Shown here: one piece after another, positions 3,837 to 64,000 of the stretch | How positions within the stretch are numbered: the stretch's first letter is position 1 | Layout of the letters: every line of letters starts with the position of its first letter | Source: a virus | UHGV virus genome: UHGV-1428848 | Strand: one strand, 5' to 3' | DNA length: 64,000 bases | Program-made: the position numbers and the translations under genes | The notes under the pieces: model-generated | What the model was told of the DNA's origin: nothing | Databases searched by the model: none | What the model saw: the letters and a program-made list of their open reading frames with translations, nothing else

Positions 3837-4052
3837 TTAATCGTCGCAGTCGACGCTCAATTCCCAAAACTCTTCTACGGTATAAGTTTCAGTATCATTT
3901 TCAATACAGAAACGTTCATTACTGTTATTTGCTAAAGTAGCATTAACTGTCGGTTTCTCGCTAGTGCTCTTAAGAGGTGAAATACGAATTAACTGATCAC
4001 CGTTATCTAAACAGAAAATTTCACCAACTTTTACATCTTTAAAGATTTTCAT
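3837..4052 (-). CDS. hypothetical protein (71 aa)
   Basis: ORF track; ndd-proximal small ORF. Confidence 0.45.
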   Translation of the reverse strand: MKIFKDVKVGEIFCLDNGDQLIRISPLKSTSEKPTVNATLANNSNERFCIENDTETYTVEEFWELSVDCDD

Positions 4053-4167
4053 AATTCACCTCAAGGAGTATAAAATCCAAACGCAGTTGTTGACCATCCC
4101 ATCCAATATGGGAAATTTGCGCCAATGTAAAACATAAGAATATAAAACCAACCGCTCAGCAAATTCA

Positions 4168-4386
4168 TCATTTTACACCATTCCAAATTGTTTCAACCAC
4201 GGATTTTAAACCATTTTGATGAATGTCCATTCCAACTACCGCCATCAAATAGATTCCAACTACAACTGAACCTAAGGCAAAAATCAGCATAAAAATGAAT
4301 AAAGCCGGAAAAATATTATCGAAAAACCATTCAATAAATGTAAAAGCACTGCGTTTACGCTTCATATTTTCCTCACATAAATCCAA
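4168..4386 (-). CDS. small membrane protein (72 aa)
   Basis: ORF track; long hydrophobic segment IFPALFIFMLIFALGSVVVGIYLMAVVG. Confidence 0.45.
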   Translation of the reverse strand: MDLCEENMKRKRSAFTFIEWFFDNIFPALFIFMLIFALGSVVVGIYLMAVVGMDIHQNGLKSVVETIWNGVK

Positions 4387-4486
4387 AGTAAGCGTTTAAT
4401 ACATCAATCATTAAAACGATTGGGAATATACTCAAAACTATTAGTATTATAACTACATTCCATATAGCTTTAACAATCTTTTTCAT
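4373..4486 (-). CDS. small membrane peptide (37 aa)
   Basis: Internal ATG of ORF 4373..4621 lying just downstream of an early promoter and GGAGGA SD; MKKIVKAIWNVVIILIVLSIFPIVLMIDVLNAYFGFM. Confidence 0.35.
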   Translation of the reverse strand: MKKIVKAIWNVVIILIVLSIFPIVLMIDVLNAYFGFM

Positions 4487-4511
4487 TTTCTGTTCCTCCG
4501 TAGTTGATAGG

Positions 4512-4544
4512 GTAATAGTACCACGGAAGAACAGTCTTGTAAAC
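4512..4544 (-). promoter_or_regulatory. T4-type early promoter
   Basis: Minus strand GTTTACAAGACTGTTCTTCCGTGGTACTATTACCC then SD GGAGGA. Confidence 0.55.
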
Positions 4545-4729
4545 AACTTTTTTAAAAATATTCGTAATAAATGTGAATACCAATCACTACTGCCGAAACT
4601 TGTGCAACCCACCACGCACAAGCAATAAGTACAGAATTAAAAATTTTCATAATAACCTCATCACAAAAGTAAATGTTAAACAAATTACTGGAATACTAAT
4701 TAACCAAACAAAACACCACCATAGTGAAC

Positions 4730-6144: not shown

Positions 6145-7083
6145 TTATTTAAATTGTTCAGTAACGTCTTCAACTACTTCGTATTGACAGGTACGCATTT
6201 TAGCATCGTTGTAATCAATCGGAATTGATACTACATCACGCGGATGTACTTTAACTTTTACAACTCGGCTGGTTGAACTGCCAAAGTGACGAATATAAGA
6301 TTTAGAACACACATGCAGACCACGAGAACAAGTTTGTGTATCATCGTCATTCACACGAGTACGTGGCATTTTAACTACTTTACCAGGACTGTTATCAAAA
6401 GTATTTGAATGACAGTCAAAGTAATTGCTGCGAACTACTTTCCAAGCATAGAAGTAACCATCTTCTGTAATTTCAATATCATTTGCTACCAAGAAATCAA
6501 AAAGTCGAGATACCGCTTTCTGGCTTGGGTTTTCCAGCAGATTTTCCAAGAACGGAAAATAAAATTCAAAGTTTTCGCCTTTTTCCATCGAGTCAAGAAT
6601 ACGATCAACCAAACCAGATCGCAATTCAATATTTTGATAGAATAAGCTTCCACCTTCAATTCGAACATCGCCGGAAATATATTTTTCAACAGCGCGACGA
6701 ACATTAATTTTTTGTGCCGCTTCTTCTAACTTATCTGCTACGAGCAGATTAAGAATTTCCTGGAAGTTTGAATGAGTATTAGGAGTTGCGTTATAAGTTA
6801 CACCGTCAACAGTAATTGAAATGAATTTTTTAGATGCATTCCAAATAATGTCAGATTTAGCAACTGGAGCAATAACTTCATCGCTATTAACTTTAACTGT
6901 AATATCACCGCTAATAGTAACTTTAGGGCGTTTAGCTTCTTCAGCATTTTTCAAAACACGACGGATTGTGTCAACCGATACATCCTTCCAATAAGCTAAT
7001 TCCTGCTGAGTGTAATTACCGCTTGAATACAGTTTAACAATTTCAGCTTGTTCGTTTTTGGTCAGGCATTTAATATTGTACAT
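6145..7083 (-). CDS. rIIB: rIIB protein
   Basis: 312 aa, same as T4 rIIB; directly downstream of rIIA. Confidence 0.85.
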   Translation of the reverse strand: MYNIKCLTKNEQAEIVKLYSSGNYTQQELAYWKDVSVDTIRRVLKNAEEAKRPKVTISGDITVKVNSDEVIAPVAKSDIIWNASKKFISITVDGVTYNATPNTHSNFQEILNLLVADKLEEAAQKINVRRAVEKYISGDVRIEGGSLFYQNIELRSGLVDRILDSMEKGENFEFYFPFLENLLENPSQKAVSRLFDFLVANDIEITEDGYFYAWKVVRSNYFDCHSNTFDNSPGKVVKMPRTRVNDDDTQTCSRGLHVCSKSYIRHFGSSTSRVVKVKVHPRDVVSIPIDYNDAKMRTCQYEVVEDVTEQFK

Positions 7084-57996: not shown

Positions 57997-58311
57997 CTAA
58001 AAGAAACTTCTTTCACAATTTTTTCCACTGAACCATGCGCTTACCGCTTTCTTAGTCTCAGGAGCAGTGTTATCCATAAACCATTCAAAAGCAGCCTTTT
58101 TATGATTCTGGAGGGCTTCTCGGGCTTTAATCTGCTCACGGTCTATTAACACTAATATATGAGCCTTTCTTGTCACCAAGGGCTTCTTATGATTCTTGGA
58201 GTATTCCCAGTCATTTGTCCAACGCATTGTCGTTGCGAACTGATGAACCGCGTCTTTAATTTTAGTTTCGTAAATTTCACGAGCTTTTGAGTATAACATC
58301 TTTACCTCCAT
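57997..58311 (-). CDS. hypothetical protein (104 aa)
   Basis: ORF track. Confidence 0.45.
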   Translation of the reverse strand: MEVKMLYSKAREIYETKIKDAVHQFATTMRWTNDWEYSKNHKKPLVTRKAHILVLIDREQIKAREALQNHKKAAFEWFMDNTAPETKKAVSAWFSGKNCERSFF

Positions 58312-60179: not shown

Positions 60180-61193
60180 TCATTTATAATAACTTCGGTG
60201 GTTTTCAAGATAGACCTTCTCAAGGAAGTCATCCCAGAAACTCATGTCTACTTTTTGCTGCATACCGTTCTTAGAAGCTTCAGTAGATGCTGCTTCTACT
60301 TGATCGACCACATCTTCCAAAAACTCTTGAACTGTTTTAAATGGATGCTTACCCAACTTCACGTCGAGAATAAATGGAGCATCTTGGAGTGGATAAATCA
60401 AGTCGCCAGTTTTGTAAATTTCCAATAGTTGGAGTCCACCACGACAAGCATGGCTCAGAGCTTTCCAGTCAATACCTTCATTAGCTTCGGCTTTACGAGC
60501 ACGTTCACCATATTCAGCATCTAATTTGTTCAGTGACTGCTTAAGCTCAATAAGAGAAAGCGTTGTCTGATATTTACGACCCAATACAGTGTAGAACGTT
60601 TGTGGACCTGTTTTCTCATGATTATGGAACACCCATTCACAGAATTCGTTTTCTGGAAGACGATGCTTAATATCTTCAACTTTAGTGCGACGCTGCTTAA
60701 TAGAACCATCTTCTTGGTAATCAACCCATTGCTCAGGGATTTGATTAACTACTTTCAATACATCGCGTAATGCAGCCAAACGAGAACCCTTGACACCATA
60801 TTTAGAAGCTTGCTTGCGAACATATCCTAAATAGGATTTCATGTTAGTCGTATAAAAACGAGAACGGTTGTCTTGAATAAACTTCCACACGTCAGGCAAA
60901 TCAGATTTAACCACTAGTTCAGGTGGAGTGTGAAGCATATCCAATGCTACAGTTTCACCATCTGCTGCTAATTTAAAGAAATACTTAAGACTATACAATT
61001 CGTGGTCAATATCATCTTTAGTGTTTTTAGATGATGTGTTGTTGGTATTTTTACTCATATGCTCTTTAACATTTCCGATAAGAATATCACGAGCAGGAGG
61101 AACAAAGATTTCTTTAAAATCTACATCAGATTCTGGAGTAGAAGTTCCATAAAGATGGCTACCAAAATAGCTTTTCATTACTGTTTTCATCAT
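60180..61193 (-). CDS. Pol-beta superfamily nucleotidyltransferase (337 aa) with helical C-terminal domain
   Basis: N-terminal GSHLYGTSTPESDVDF (GS-x9-DhD minimal NTase motif) plus downstream DDIDHE acidic site. Confidence 0.55.
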   Translation of the reverse strand: MMKTVMKSYFGSHLYGTSTPESDVDFKEIFVPPARDILIGNVKEHMSKNTNNTSSKNTKDDIDHELYSLKYFFKLAADGETVALDMLHTPPELVVKSDLPDVWKFIQDNRSRFYTTNMKSYLGYVRKQASKYGVKGSRLAALRDVLKVVNQIPEQWVDYQEDGSIKQRRTKVEDIKHRLPENEFCEWVFHNHEKTGPQTFYTVLGRKYQTTLSLIELKQSLNKLDAEYGERARKAEANEGIDWKALSHACRGGLQLLEIYKTGDLIYPLQDAPFILDVKLGKHPFKTVQEFLEDVVDQVEAASTEASKNGMQQKVDMSFWDDFLEKVYLENHRSYYK

Positions 61194-61651
61194 TCAGCCT
61201 TATATTCAATAACAGGACATACTTTAGCTTTACGCGCTTTTAAAAATTCAACGATAACCGATTTCTTGGGTTGAATAGGAGGTAAACCTTTATACGCCCT
61301 ATCAATATTTTCTACGTGTAAAGCATAATCCTTTTTCCATTTATAATCTTTATATTTTTCATGCAAATGTGCAGGAATAACAAATGAACCGATAATAAGT
61401 AAAACAACCAAAAGCGCAAGTATAAATGCTGATGGAAGAAGAGTCCATAAACTACCGAAAATAAGCCAACGTTGTAGGCTTTCTGCACAAATAATTGTTA
61501 GCCCTACGAGTATAGCACATCCAAAAATAGAAACGAAAAATGTAGGAATGGCAATAGACCAAAAATATGCGCATAGTGTCTTAGGTCGTTGCCATTCATC
61601 GTTAAACAATTTGAATAATTTATAGTGCCAAGAGTTTTCATTAATAATCAT
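61190..61651 (-). CDS. membrane protein (153 aa), 3-4 TM helices
   Basis: Stop overlaps nucleotidyltransferase ATG (ATGA). Confidence 0.5.
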   Translation of the reverse strand: MIINENSWHYKLFKLFNDEWQRPKTLCAYFWSIAIPTFFVSIFGCAILVGLTIICAESLQRWLIFGSLWTLLPSAFILALLVVLLIIGSFVIPAHLHEKYKDYKWKKDYALHVENIDRAYKGLPPIQPKKSVIVEFLKARKAKVCPVIEYKAE

Positions 61652-61653
61652 AA

Positions 61654-62175
61654 TTATCCTTTCATTGAAGGCGTAACAGTTGTTAAATACTTAATCATAG
61701 CTTCAGCTTCTGATTTTGATAATGAAATTTCTCCATTGTTTTGACGAATAGAAATAAAATCCGGATGACGGTCACCACCAGCTTTTAAAACACACATATA
61801 AGTATCAACTTCATCTTCAATATTTGAAATGATTGAAGCAGTTCCACATGAATGCGGTTTTTGATAAATCAATGCAGCTTTTCTTCCGCCATTTGACTGT
61901 TCATAAACTTTTAATACATCAAACAAATCACTTCTTTTATCAATAGCTAAAATGTTATTTTCATCTTCAATGTTAAATCCTTCGGATACTTCATAAAGTG
62001 TCACCCATAAATCGCCAATATCAATAACAGCGTTCACTTTTCCATGACTTTCAAGAGCATGACAAATTTTCTTGATTTCGTCATAACTCATTTTAATAAT
62101 ATCATCTCCTTGAATAAGGAAAATATCATTTTTAAATTCAACACGAATTAAACCACTTCCACTTGAAATAAACAT
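61654..62175 (-). CDS. hypothetical protein (173 aa), paralog of 62182..62736
   Basis: C-terminus SEAEAMIKYLTTVTPSM. Confidence 0.5.
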   Translation of the reverse strand: MFISSGSGLIRVEFKNDIFLIQGDDIIKMSYDEIKKICHALESHGKVNAVIDIGDLWVTLYEVSEGFNIEDENNILAIDKRSDLFDVLKVYEQSNGGRKAALIYQKPHSCGTASIISNIEDEVDTYMCVLKAGGDRHPDFISIRQNNGEISLSKSEAEAMIKYLTTVTPSMKG

Positions 62176-62181
62176 ATTTCC

Positions 62182-62736
62182 TCACTTTGAAATCATAGTT
62201 GGAATGACAGAATCAAGATAAGTCTTTAGCGCAATAGCTTCGTCTTTGGTAAATGTGACAATATGTGCTCGAGAATCATCATTTTGGCGAACAAGTACGA
62301 CATCGCCATCTTCATAAGAAGTCTTGACATCCAAAGTCGTAGTATAATTTGCAGCTACTGGATTAATAATGTTAGCACCGCGATCTTTAGCCCATTGAAG
62401 TTTAGCCTTTTCGGGTGTTTCGACTGTTTCAGATTCTAAGAATTCTTTCACCTTGGCAACGAATGTTGCCCAATTGTTGATAGAAAGACACATAAATTCA
62501 GTTTCAATATTACCGCCGTAAAGGCCACGATAAAAACGAACTTGGAGGTCGTCTGTAATATTAGTTACACCGGTAACTCCTGAGGGAGCATAAGATAAAA
62601 TCGCAGCCAGTTCCATAGGAAGAATAGTAATACTATCGTCTTCCTGCGTCAGAACGTATACATTACCGCGTTTTTCGATAACTAGGTCACCGAACAAATC
62701 AGTTGTTTCAATTACAGCTTTCATATTATTTACCAA
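62182..62736 (-). CDS. hypothetical protein (184 aa), paralog of 61654..62175
   Basis: C-terminus DEAIALKTYLDSVIPTM. Confidence 0.5.
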   Translation of the reverse strand: MVNNMKAVIETTDLFGDLVIEKRGNVYVLTQEDDSITILPMELAAILSYAPSGVTGVTNITDDLQVRFYRGLYGGNIETEFMCLSINNWATFVAKVKEFLESETVETPEKAKLQWAKDRGANIINPVAANYTTTLDVKTSYEDGDVVLVRQNDDSRAHIVTFTKDEAIALKTYLDSVIPTMISK

Positions 62737-62911
62737 TTAAAGTTTCAATATAAGAATCAAGATTTACTTTAGCTTCTTCCATAAGAGTTTTGTATTTAAT
62801 CTTGTTGGCATGTCCGGAGAAAGCTGATTCATCAATAATTGTTGATGTATGAACAGCTTTACTATACGTCTCAATTAATTCTCTTAATTTAAAAGCCTGC
62901 TCACTTGTCAT
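62726..62911 (-). CDS. small helical protein (61 aa), tandem family member
   Basis: MTSEQAFKLRELIETYSKAV... Confidence 0.45.
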   Translation of the reverse strand: MTSEQAFKLRELIETYSKAVHTSTIIDESAFSGHANKIKYKTLMEEAKVNLDSYIETLIGK

Positions 62912-63040
62912 TACATACTCCTCTGAATCATATCAATAATATTGTTCACCAGATTATAAGTAAACATTGGGTAATTATATTGAATCATCACATACACAAC
63001 AAACAAAACTTTCATTCTCTTCTCCTTGGAAGTTGACAAG

Positions 63041-63072
63041 ATTACTATACCATAACCTTGCCAACTTGTAAA
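63041..63072 (-). promoter_or_regulatory. T4-type early promoter
   Basis: Minus strand GTTTACAAGTTGGCAAGGTTATGGTATAGTAA. Confidence 0.5.
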
Positions 63073-63249
63073 CCATTAAATGACGTTTTCAATAAAATTT
63101 TGAAGCTTTGTGTGAGCATCAACCATGATTTTCATTTCTTCTTTGGCGAAAGCTGTACCTCTTTCCCGAGAAGAACATTCATAGTCAGAAACTGCATTAG
63201 CATATTCTTCAATTAGTTTCATTAAAAACATCTGCTTTTCAGTTTTCAT
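63073..63249 (-). CDS. small helical protein (58 aa), tandem family member
   Basis: Hand-translated MKTEKQMFLMKLIEEYANAV...; not in ORF track (<60 aa). Confidence 0.35.
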
Positions 63250-63433
63250 TATTCCACCTAATCATTTCAAGATATTGAACTAACTTAACTTTAGATTTAT
63301 CCAAATCCTTTTTAGCTGCTTCTATACCGTCGTATGAATATCCTTCACAATGCTCAACTGCTAATTGATATGAATCTATTTCAATATCACGTGCTAATTT
63401 AATGATTTTTTCAAACTGTTCGCGTGTTAGCAT
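63239..63433 (-). CDS. small helical protein (64 aa), tandem family member
   Basis: MLTREQFEKIIKLARDIEID... Confidence 0.45.
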   Translation of the reverse strand: MLTREQFEKIIKLARDIEIDSYQLAVEHCEGYSYDGIEAAKKDLDKSKVKLVQYLEMIRWNNEN

Positions 63434-63435
63434 AC

Positions 63436-63675
63436 TTAAACTCTCGTATTATGATCGATAATTTCATCAAGAAACATATCTAACGCTTCTAAAGCATTAT
63501 CAACTTTAGCTTCAAGTTCATCAATACCTTTATTTGCAATGCCTGACGAAAACCAAGCAAAGTCACTAAGTTCCTCATCTGCTTTGCAAATTAAAGCTAC
63601 CAATTCTTTAATTTTATCTGCTTGTTCAATTCTAGTCATTATTCCACCACATATGAAAGAGAGAATATTGCACAC
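63436..63675 (-). CDS. small helical protein (79 aa; 67 aa from MTRIEQ...), tandem family member
   Basis: [21 protein letters not shown]... Confidence 0.45.
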
Positions 63676-63827
63676 GCCATATGAGTTGCAGCTTCATCAC
63701 ACATATCATAACGTTTCTTAAGAAGTTCTACAAGTTCTTCACTAGTAACTTCATCCATGTCGACGAAAAAATCACCATTAATGATGACGTAGATATTTCC
63801 TTCTTGATTGAGTGCTTCAATTTTCAT
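63639..63827 (-). CDS. hypothetical protein (62 aa)
   Basis: ATG at 63827 after GAGGAG SD and early promoter; the longer track ORF reads through the promoter. Confidence 0.4.
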
Positions 63828-63851: not shown

Positions 63852-63885
63852 TTGTATAGTATCACAGCTCAAATTGAAAGTAAAC
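63852..63885 (-). promoter_or_regulatory. T4-type early promoter
   Basis: Minus strand GTTTACTTTCAATTTGAGCTGTGATACTATACAAC. Confidence 0.5.
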
Positions 63886-64000
63886 TGGTAAAATGAAAAA
63901 GTCTCCCAAAGGAGACTAATGTTATTCGAGGGAAAGAAGATATTTGCTCTGGTAAAACATCCCAGTAATATCATCTATCGTGCTTTGAATGGCTGGAGGC

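Follow-up and report, generated by a model that had tools for sequence, protein, structure and literature searches.

The closest described relatives of the locus analyzed here are genes of bacteriophage T4. In T4, the mobD.2a, mobD.3, mobD.4, tk.1, and tk.2 genes encode proteins of one family, which is also represented by PHROGs 653, 2758, and 4859 and has been catalogued in Pfam as DUF7438 (PF24219), a family of two-helix proteins of about 60 residues from T4-like phages. The mobD.3 and mobD.4 genes have been classed as early in both RNA and protein (early-RNA_early-Protein) and mobD.2a as early in RNA (PMC9697503), and the promoter of the mobD.5 gene has been mapped by primer extension (PMC1702504). 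Transposon sequencing of T4 has found mobD.2a, mobD.3, mobD.4, and tk.1 to be non-essential: the first three are depleted neither between two independently built K-12 libraries, T4_REF and T4_DeltarnlA, nor on UPEC CFE299, and tk.1 is unchanged between these two libraries. Family members are made within minutes of T4 infection, and each is dispensable on its own. The nrdC.1 gene, in the same plastic region, encodes a proven anti-Septu factor and drops 28-fold on CFE299. The searched literature assigns no function to mobD.2a, mobD.3, mobD.4, tk.1, or DUF7438, and no binding partner, toxicity, or defense phenotype is reported there for any DUF7438 member.

The stretch of DNA analyzed here (the window, 64,000 nucleotides) is part of a Tequatrovirus (T4-like) genome, and the feature under study is its minus-strand early mobD.5–mobD.1 gene cluster, which is 97-98% identical to the same region of other Tequatrovirus genomes and corresponds to T4 mobD.1-mobD.5 (Table 1). 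The operon opens with a terminator, which closes the upstream rI.-1 transcription unit directly ahead of the mobD.5 promoter, and proceeds through mobD.5, mobD.4, mobD.3, and mobD.2a to a second early promoter, followed by mobD.2, p61, and mobD.1. Three of these genes have named T4 orthologues (mobD.2a, mobD.3, and mobD.4; 72-95% identical and in the same gene order). In comparison with T4, the window phage carries an extra, T6-type gene, p61, between mobD.2 and mobD.1, as well as an intact mobD.2a, which is frameshifted in the T4 reference sequence but intact in T4D. The initial annotation of this DNA had singled out, between positions 62726 and 63827, four adjacent small ORFs with related N-termini as a tandem family of early-expressed, acidic helical proteins. 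All four ORFs are present on the minus strand with the quoted N-termini and encode proteins of 57-67 aa, and the interval also includes two genes from outside the family, mobD.5 and mobD.2. The mobD.1-like gene is downstream context and likewise lies outside DUF7438.

Table 1. Features of the mobD.5–mobD.1 cluster in order of transcription, with positions in the 64-kb window.
Feature	Position	Strand	Basis and remarks
rI.-1 unit intrinsic terminator hairpin	63900..63917	-	AGTCTCCTTTGGGAGACT then T-run; terminator scan; conserved in 8 related genomes
mobD.5 early-type promoter	63856..63885	-	GTTTAC, 18-nt spacer, TG-n-TACTAT; sequence reading
mobD.5, 62 aa, the operon's first gene	63639..63827	-	phrog_3024 at 4.3e-44
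mobD.4 orthologue, 67 aa, DUF7438	63436..63639	-	Pfam 52.7 bits; N-terminus as in the initial annotation
mobD.3 orthologue, 64 aa, DUF7438	63239..63433	-	Pfam 62.9 bits; N-terminus MLTREQFEKIIKLARDIEID
mobD.2a orthologue, 57 aa, DUF7438	63076..63249	-	Pfam 56.5 bits; N-terminus MKTEKQMFLMKLIEEYANAV
Internal early-type promoter	63044..63072	-	TTTACA, 17 nt, TG-g-TATAGT; conserved in 7 genomes
mobD.2, 34-aa hydrophobic peptide	62911..63015	-	dN/dS 0.16; no DUF7438-family match
p61, 61 aa, DUF7438	62726..62911	-	Pfam 57.8 bits; N-terminus MTSEQAFKLRELIETYSKAV
mobD.1-like gene	62182..62724	-	T4_y05I_N and T4_y05I_C domains (Pfam 112.7 and 63.5 bits); MLF4 annotation

The cluster is served by two conserved early-type promoters, located upstream of mobD.5 and of mobD.2. 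The mobD.5 promoter is near-invariant across eight genomes and falls under the threshold of a generic sigma-70 scan. The internal promoter begins 3 nt past the mobD.2a stop codon, upstream of mobD.2, p61, and mobD.1, all of which it is predicted to drive. It is the top promoter-scan match of the region (10/12, with an extended -10), but scan matches in the region do not rise above those in shuffled sequence, and support for this promoter therefore rests on its conservation and position. The genes themselves are closely packed. The mobD.5 and mobD.4 genes overlap by 1 nt, with the mobD.5 stop codon sharing a base with the mobD.4 start (TAATG), and the same 1-nt overlap (TAATG) joins the mobD.2 stop to the p61 start; the mobD.4 stop lies 2 nt from mobD.3, the end of mobD.3 overlaps mobD.2a by 11 nt, and p61 is separated by a single nucleotide from the mobD.1-like gene, to which it is considered translationally coupled. 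The suggestion that each family gene has its own early promoter or tight coupling is thus upheld with respect to coupling, through overlaps of 1-11 nt or short gaps, but not with respect to a promoter per gene, as only two promoters serve the cluster. In the case of early expression, the promoter-like elements are present and conserved here, and the claim holds for the T4 orthologues covered by expression evidence, with mobD.3 and mobD.4 early in RNA and protein (PMC9697503); p61 is a gene without a T4 orthologue.

The four ORFs are almost certainly paralogous members of DUF7438. Judged by the curated gathering score of 25 bits and by end-to-end coverage of the 57-position model, all four proteins score at least twice the gathering value (Table 1) and align to model positions 1-57 (p61), 1-56 (mobD.2a), 1-57 (mobD.3), and 3-57 (mobD.4). 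Leave-one-subfamily-out HMMs, which provide a homology check free of models possibly seeded with these same proteins, ranked the omitted paralogue as the top non-member among 1182 window ORFs in all four instances (E = 3e-4, 6e-3, 0.2, and 0.26). Full-length comparison of orthologue-only alignments with hhalign paired mobD.4 with mobD.3 (P = 1.9e-5) and p61 with mobD.2a (P = 1.1e-4), and a bridging sequence, the RB69 "tk.1-like" protein, matches mobD.4 (1.6e-7), p61 (1.6e-6), and T4 Tk.1 (2.5e-8). The neighboring mobD.5, used as a control, matched none of the four hairpin subfamilies with hhalign and had no DUF7438 match in Pfam, and mobD.2 was likewise without a match in searches against the hairpin family. 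Identity between paralogues is in the range of about 20-35%, the four-subfamily alignment is devoid of any conserved stretch of 7-10 columns, and pairwise BLAST among the four hairpins is weak, with p61-mobD.4 as the only scoring pair (E = 2e-4); this near silence of BLAST makes profile methods necessary. Pfam, the leave-one-out searches, the hhalign profile alignments, and the bridging sequences therefore bear out the proposal of a paralogous family, and the profile comparison that had been suggested as its check returned significant similarity. An HMM scan found no further copies inside the 64-kb window. The tk.1 and tk.2 genes, just past its end, also belong to the family, and this phage lineage carries at least five paralogous hairpin genes, four of them inside the window. 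As a family already catalogued in Pfam and among the named T4 genes, DUF7438 is ordinary, and its members at this locus show no difference in kind.

Each paralogue constitutes an old, separately conserved lineage under strong purifying selection, with dN/dS values of 0.12 for p61, 0.06 for mobD.2a, 0.08 for mobD.3, and 0.35 for mobD.4. The loop of mobD.4 reaches a dN/dS of 0.51 and carries indels, and the mobD.3 loop motif, CEGYSY-GIE, is unchanged across genera. The number of isolate genomes per paralogue ranges from 193 to 586: mobD.3 is found in 586 phage records, mobD.2a in 492, and p61, which T4 lacks, in 193 (T6 and some 190 others). The family does not extend beyond T4-like phages that infect enterobacteria. 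In a set of 1.84 billion representative proteins, the family profile obtained 19 matches, all of them small T4-like phage proteins with the exception of three repeat-protein artifacts, and a search of IMG/VR with the mobD.4 sub-alignment recovered five near-identical loci. The description of these proteins as acidic is accurate insofar as all four are net negative (-1, -2, -3, and -9 for p61, mobD.2a, mobD.3, and mobD.4), but it covers anything from slight to marked acidity (pI 6.06, 5.27, 5.04, and 4.27, respectively), with mobD.4 as the most acidic copy.

The helical nature of these proteins is supported by AF2, the check originally proposed, which predicts two-helix hairpins with helices at residues 3-31 and 38-66 in mobD.4 (pLDDT 79.6) and at residues 3-25 and 31-60 in p61 (pLDDT 86.8). 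Hydrophobic residues occupy three positions in every seven (e.g., p61 residues 6, 7, 9, 12, 13, 16, 19, and 20), and the resulting hydrophobic face appears to exceed the needs of a lone hairpin, which suggests that these proteins oligomerize or bind a partner. Fold searches of the mobD.4 model against PDB and BFVD, and of the p61 model against PDB, returned no match at E <= 0.001; the weaker matches comprised generic hairpins (CnrX, Mediator Med11/22, ROP, HR1b) or uncharacterized T4-like phage proteins. The best geometric matches, none of them statistically significant, were ROP (TM 0.84, rmsd 1.5 A over 57 columns for the p61 model) and HR1 antiparallel coiled-coil fingers. ROP/Rom, a 63-aa hairpin of ColE1 plasmids that forms a dimeric four-helix bundle, resembles the DUF7438 proteins in size and predicted antiparallel hairpin geometry. 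The family profile also picks up proteins with Sel1 repeats (nine repeats together give E = 1.5e-9), with which it shares a helix-turn-helix hairpin pattern, but Sel1/TPR units span 36-44 aa, as opposed to about 57 aa in DUF7438, and the matches are sums of weak repeats; the four proteins match no Sel1 or TPR model in Pfam, and the relationship was rejected. The sole PDB sequence match of the family profile, a designed armadillo repeat (E = 1.4e-4), was judged spurious.

Small early modulators of host proteins are exemplified by Aqs1 of Pseudomonas phage DMS3, a helical-hairpin dimer of about 65 aa, and by T4 Dmd and Arn. The hairpins share with them a common format, being shorter than 100 aa, early in their T4 representatives, dispensable in permissive hosts, and encoded in plastic genome regions, and their initial reading as putative inhibitors of host enzymes is plausible. 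Searches of Pfam, PHROG, NCBIfam, PADLOC, PDB sequences, BFVD, and folds yielded no link to a characterized protein, and those of Pfam, PHROGs, NCBIfam, PADLOC, PDB, and BFVD no homology to a characterized anti-defense or host-takeover inhibitor. Aqs1 does occur in the fold list, at a probability of 0.12-0.18, with no homology to the hairpins. In the NCBIfam/PADLOC scan, matches to SASP Tlp (19 bits, with a cut-off of 72.9) and MTase_II (13 bits) were dismissed.

The model that we tentatively put forward, and that we regard as open to substantial doubt, is that the hairpins are stoichiometric protein-binding modules, each modulating a different host protein or defense component in early takeover. 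Pairing would probably give a ROP-like four-helix bundle, each hairpin would bind and modulate a distinct host protein or defense component, and the paralogues would have diverged onto separate targets. This model would explain why each copy is strongly conserved, why identity between copies is limited, and why laboratory strains reveal no phenotype when a single gene is lost. The anti-Septu activity of the neighboring nrdC.1, the narrow T4-like distribution of the family, the early expression of its T4 members, and their dispensability are all in agreement with this model. Against it, transposon insertions in mobD.2a, mobD.3, or mobD.4 do not significantly alter fitness on K-12 or UPEC CFE299, but these negatives do not refute a host-inhibitor role, because transposon sequencing covered few hosts and few defense systems and because redundancy among paralogues could mask single-gene effects. 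Strong purifying selection with little diversification within the genus is, moreover, not the classic signature of an arms race, the mobD.4 loop being the only variable part, and the mild acidity of three of the four proteins makes a general DNA-mimic mechanism unlikely. Redundancy may hide a phenotype, which speaks for removing tk.1, tk.2, mobD.2a, mobD.3, mobD.4, and the T6-type p61 together. Should binding to host factors be borne out, a conserved multi-copy family would join the takeover and counter-defense proteins of T-even phages, in a genome region near nrdC.1, recently shown to block the Septu defense system.

It is less likely that the targets are phage rather than host proteins, with the hairpins serving as small adaptors, chaperones, or regulatory subunits for the neighboring y05I-like (MobD.1/NrdC.8-type) proteins or for other proteins made early by the phage. 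The translational coupling of p61 to mobD.1 across a 1-nt gap points in this direction, as does the RB69 family member that ends 1 nt ahead of mobD.1 in the same slot (4001-4180, then 4182-4712); y05I-like genes also occur in duplicate here, and the purifying selection, unaccompanied by diversification, is compatible with internal partners that co-evolve. However, mobD.4, mobD.3, mobD.2a, tk.1, and tk.2 do not adjoin y05I-like genes, and copy numbers are uncoupled, T4 having five hairpin genes (one of them frameshifted in the reference) and two y05I-like genes, mobD.1 and nrdC.8, the latter putatively assigned from the annotation of RB69 and the name of the Pfam family. Improbable, in our estimation, is a scenario in which the five to seven DUF7438 orthogroups work as a combinatorial set, with like or unlike hairpins dimerizing into four-helix bundles and the resulting mixed surfaces neutralizing several Enterobacteriaceae-specific defense or stress factors, even if combinatorial pairing would account for strong purifying selection on every copy, the varying copy content (p61, tk.1, and mobD.2a gained or lost), and silent single knockouts.

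We consider it more improbable still that the hairpins are ROP-like nucleic-acid-binding four-helix bundles engaged in early RNA or DNA transactions, possibly at the nearby oriC. ROP is the nearest geometric analogue of the p61 model, and rI.-1, directly upstream of the cluster, marks T4 oriC (PMC3016281). Nonetheless, the fold match to ROP is insignificant (Foldseek E = 0.9) and compares monomer models of generic hairpins whose dimerization is presumed, the sequences are unrelated, and neither a Rop match in Pfam at E <= 1 nor any ROP chain from the search of PDB sequences was obtained. ROP is furthermore an RNA-binding regulator of plasmid copy number with a basic binding face, whereas all four DUF7438 proteins are net negative and have no basic patch.

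The likelihood that the four ORFs are unrelated sequences sharing a generic amphipathic helix and an N-terminal capping box, or decaying filler devoid of function, is very low. The near silence of pairwise BLAST, the capture of Sel1/TPR repeat proteins and a designed armadillo repeat by the family profile, and the two leave-one-out E-values of 0.2-0.26 would fit such a view, but the two-fold margin over the Pfam threshold, the first rank of the omitted paralogue in every leave-one-out test, the full-length profile–profile matches and intermediate chains joining the subfamilies, and the failure of the adjacent, helical mobD.5 in these tests all contradict it, while dN/dS values of 0.06-0.35, conservation in about 200-590 genomes, and detection of the MobD.3 and MobD.4 proteins in T4 exclude decay. 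The "helicase loader" label that phrog_4859 carries and RefSeq records repeat for p61 is effectively refuted, given that p61 is a 61-residue two-helix hairpin in the AF2 model, contains no helicase-loader domain in Pfam or NCBIfam at E <= 1, has no loader among its PDB fold matches, finds its closest relatives in MobD.4, MobD.2a, and Tk.1, and is encoded by a gene missing from T4 and most of its relatives, T4 and relatives loading their helicase with the 217-aa gp59. The labels [quoted passage not shown] and "starvation-inducible transcriptional regulator", attached to hairpin genes and their neighbors, are also annotation artifacts, and the assignments made here correct misleading labels that are spreading in phage genome records.

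Over the roughly 2 kb around the hairpin genes, the window shares 97-98% identity with numerous Tequatrovirus (T4-like) genomes and matches T4 mobD.1-mobD.5 gene for gene, between nrdC.11 and rI.-1, with all relevant genes and elements on the minus strand. The four N-termini quoted in the initial annotation, which had placed related small ORFs in 62726-63827, are exactly those of p61 (working name of a 61-aa gene), MobD.2a, MobD.3 and MobD.4; that interval does hold the four related ORFs, but also the unrelated mobD.5 and mobD.2. The proposal that each gene has its own early promoter or tight coupling stands in its second half: there are two promoters, not four, and the other junctions are tight (1-nt overlaps, TAATG; one 2-nt gap; one 11-nt overlap). 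The two promoter elements, like the terminator, are almost unchanged across 7-8 related genomes. The window ends within rI.-1, a marker of origin oriC in a review of T4 replication (PMC3016281), and the hairpin operon therefore starts beside a replication origin.

Coordinates of the hairpin operon and adjoining features
Feature	Coordinates	Strand	Remark
Terminator hairpin	63917..63900	-	first element in transcription order
Early-type promoter, GTTTAC-18-TGnTACTAT	63885..63856	-	ahead of mobD.5
mobD.5	63827..63639	-	not related to hairpin family
mobD.4	63639..63436	-	hairpin gene
mobD.3	63433..63239	-	hairpin gene
mobD.2a	63249..63076	-	hairpin gene; intact, 174 nt
Second early-type promoter, TTTACA-17-TGgTATAGT	63072..63044	-	between mobD.2a and mobD.2
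mobD.2	63015..62911	-	34-aa hydrophobic peptide; not related to hairpin family
p61	62911..62726	-	hairpin gene after mobD.2; 61 aa
y05I-like gene, first	62182-62736	-	after p61; mobD.1 counterpart
y05I-like gene, second	61654-62175	-	after p61
153-aa ORF	61190-61651	-	adjoins nrdC.11
rI.-1	63900-64000		interval is the last part of the window, which ends inside rI.-1

All four proteins give end-to-end matches to Pfam DUF7438 (52.7-62.9 bits; cut-off 25 bits) and match one another's PHROGs (4859, 2758, 653). The seed of the DUF7438 model may include these same proteins, so homology was also tested independently. HMMs built from three subfamilies were run over the full set of 1182 stop-to-stop ORFs in the window, and in every case the best-scoring non-member was the paralogue left out (E = 3e-4 for p61, 6e-3 for MobD.2a, 0.2 for MobD.4 and 0.26 for MobD.3). 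Profile-profile comparison with hhalign, using alignments of orthologues only, found full-length similarity (MobD.4-MobD.3, P = 1.9e-5; p61-MobD.2a, P = 1.1e-4), while the adjacent helical MobD.5, used as a control, matched none of the hairpin subfamilies. A bridging sequence is the RB69 occupant of the p61 slot, which matches MobD.4 (1.6e-7), p61 (1.6e-6) and T4 Tk.1 (2.5e-8), and Tk.1 itself reaches MobD.2a-type and MobD.3-type sequences; direct pairwise BLAST among the four links only p61 and MobD.4 (E = 2e-4). Leave-one-out HMMs, hhalign and bridging sequences agree, and the proposed paralogy is real. The genes are named T4 genes of a family already in Pfam and PHROGs, and the finding within the window is correct but ordinary; what is added is a fuller family census (tk.1, tk.2 and p61), the operon architecture, evidence of purifying selection and a warning about annotations that mislead.

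Given family alignments, AlphaFold2 predicts an antiparallel two-helix hairpin for MobD.4 (helices 3-31 and 38-66; pLDDT 79.6) and p61 (helices 3-25 and 31-60; pLDDT 86.8), in keeping with the helical character first claimed; the claimed acidity is uneven, all four proteins lying below neutral with pI values from 6.06 to 4.27. Foldseek returned no significant match in the PDB, where the structures closest in geometry are hairpins of a generic kind (ROP, TM 0.84; PKN1 HR1b; CnrX; Mediator Med11/22), and the best BFVD matches are uncharacterised proteins from other T4-like phages. PDB sequence search, NCBIfam and PADLOC yielded nothing further on the hairpin proteins. Their common N-terminal T-x-E-Q motif can be read as a helix-capping box with an amphipathic repeat after it. 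About three in seven positions are hydrophobic, a pattern that would favor pairing, either within a larger bundle or with a partner.

Nei-Gojobori dN/dS over up to 8 genomes is 0.12 for p61, 0.06 for mobD.2a, 0.08 for mobD.3 and 0.35 for mobD.4. The variable part of MobD.4 is the inter-helix loop (dN/dS 0.51, indels of 2-7 residues), and the best-conserved part of MobD.3, in other genera too, is the loop motif CEGYSY-GIE. The T4 mobD.5 promoter has been detected by primer extension, its transcript being RegB-insensitive (PMC1702504); mobD.3 and mobD.4 are classed as 'early-RNA_early-Protein', and mobD.2, mobD.2a and mobD.5 as early RNA without a protein call (PMC9697503 supplement). HIDEN-SEQ transposon sequencing found T4 mobD.2a, mobD.3, mobD.4 and tk.1 non-essential, and on the uropathogenic strain CFE299 the three mobD copies showed no significant change (log2FC +0.28, +0.19 and +0.93; q >= 0.76) in the same experiment in which the anti-Septu factor nrdC.1 dropped (log2FC -4.8; bioRxiv 10.1101/2025.11.20.689424).

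The hairpin family is securely described as old, multi-copy, confined to a phage lineage, kept by selection and, in T4, made early and singly dispensable. Tentatively, we favor a model in which each hairpin would act as a stoichiometric binding module, probably a dimeric bundle, engaging a different host or host-defence protein. Inhibition of host enzymes, suggested in the initial annotation, is a plausible but putative role. That the hairpins instead serve phage partners, such as the translationally coupled y05I-like proteins, appears unlikely, and ROP-like nucleic-acid binding is improbable given the negative net charges of the hairpin proteins. Chance similarity or decaying filler is all but excluded by the homology and selection tests, and a helicase-loader role for p61 has practically no standing, domain and fold searches giving it no support.

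T4 tk.1 and tk.2, directly downstream of tk and about 2.6 kb past the window end, are also DUF7438 members (Pfam and a broadened HMM). T4 carries tk.2, tk.1, mobD.4, mobD.3 and mobD.2a; the window lineage, as seen in phage MLF4 (97.6% identical), a tk.2-type copy, mobD.4, mobD.3, mobD.2a and p61; and RB69 three copies. An HMM scan found no further hairpin copies within the 64-kb window. The gene after tk varies among close relatives, MLF4 having the tk.2-type copy only and T4 tk.1 then tk.2 (6460-6645 in locus L002 versus 647-835 and 832-1017 in L004), and the two alternative occupants share a mere 28% identity. By tblastn against 50,697 phage genomes, p61 occurs in 193 records, including T6, mobD.2a in 492, and mobD.3 in 586; a mobD.4-type query found 505 records and the Mosigvirus form 155. 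Outside isolates the family is tiny: IMG/VR gives five loci only, and a set of 1.84 billion representative proteins yields 19 matches, of which three are artefacts from Sel1, TPR or other repeats. Sel1-repeat and TPR proteins (E as low as 1.5e-9, summed over 9 repeats) score with the family profile, as does a designed armadillo-repeat protein; since searching Pfam in the opposite direction was negative, these scores probably reflect generic helix-hairpin likeness. A p61 identical (100%) to the window's occurs in PV654520.1, 'Pseudomonas phage vB_PSGBLB0006', with P. aeruginosa given as host, pointing to a T4-like coliphage genome whose host label is doubtful.

In the T4 reference records (NC_000866, AF158101), one frameshift splits mobD.2a (58049-58165), leaving a 38-aa ORF for the N-terminal part and, in a different frame, a C-terminal fragment of 33 aa; the gene is intact in the window, most relatives and the re-sequenced T4D used for HIDEN-SEQ. 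Two chimeric proteins (P0082 and P0087), from one T4 strain record and one contig labelled Shigella, carry the first half of MobD.3 fused to the NrdC.11 C-terminus (…STEASKNGMQQKVDMSFWDDFLERVYLENHRSYYK) and mark a recurrent mobD.3/nrdC.11 deletion, in agreement with the deletable 'nrdC.11-mobD.3' segment reported in genome-reduced T4 (PMC9825161).

Directly downstream of the hairpin genes, the tandem y05I-like paralogues carry T4_y05I_N and T4_y05I_C, described in Pfam as 'y05I-like putative transcription factor'; identity to T4 MobD.1 is just ~47% for the 184-aa copy, and no close counterpart of the 173-aa copy was found in the T4 stretch examined. The 153-aa ORF, with long hydrophobic stretches and probably a membrane protein, occupies the slot of the T4 MobD homing endonuclease, the window phage having no mobD there. 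Directly after the internal early promoter, mobD.2 (94-100% identity, dN/dS 0.16) encodes a very hydrophobic product with hardly any charged residues, which may be a small membrane peptide. RefSeq/GenBank records are propagating product names that mislead: 'Helicase loader' on p61, 'Starvation-inducible transcriptional regulator' on rI.-1, 'major tail protein' in one record, and, on mobD.4 or mobD.5, 'Molybdopterin-guanine dinucleotide biosynthesis protein MobD', a label apparently derived from the homing-endonuclease gene name.
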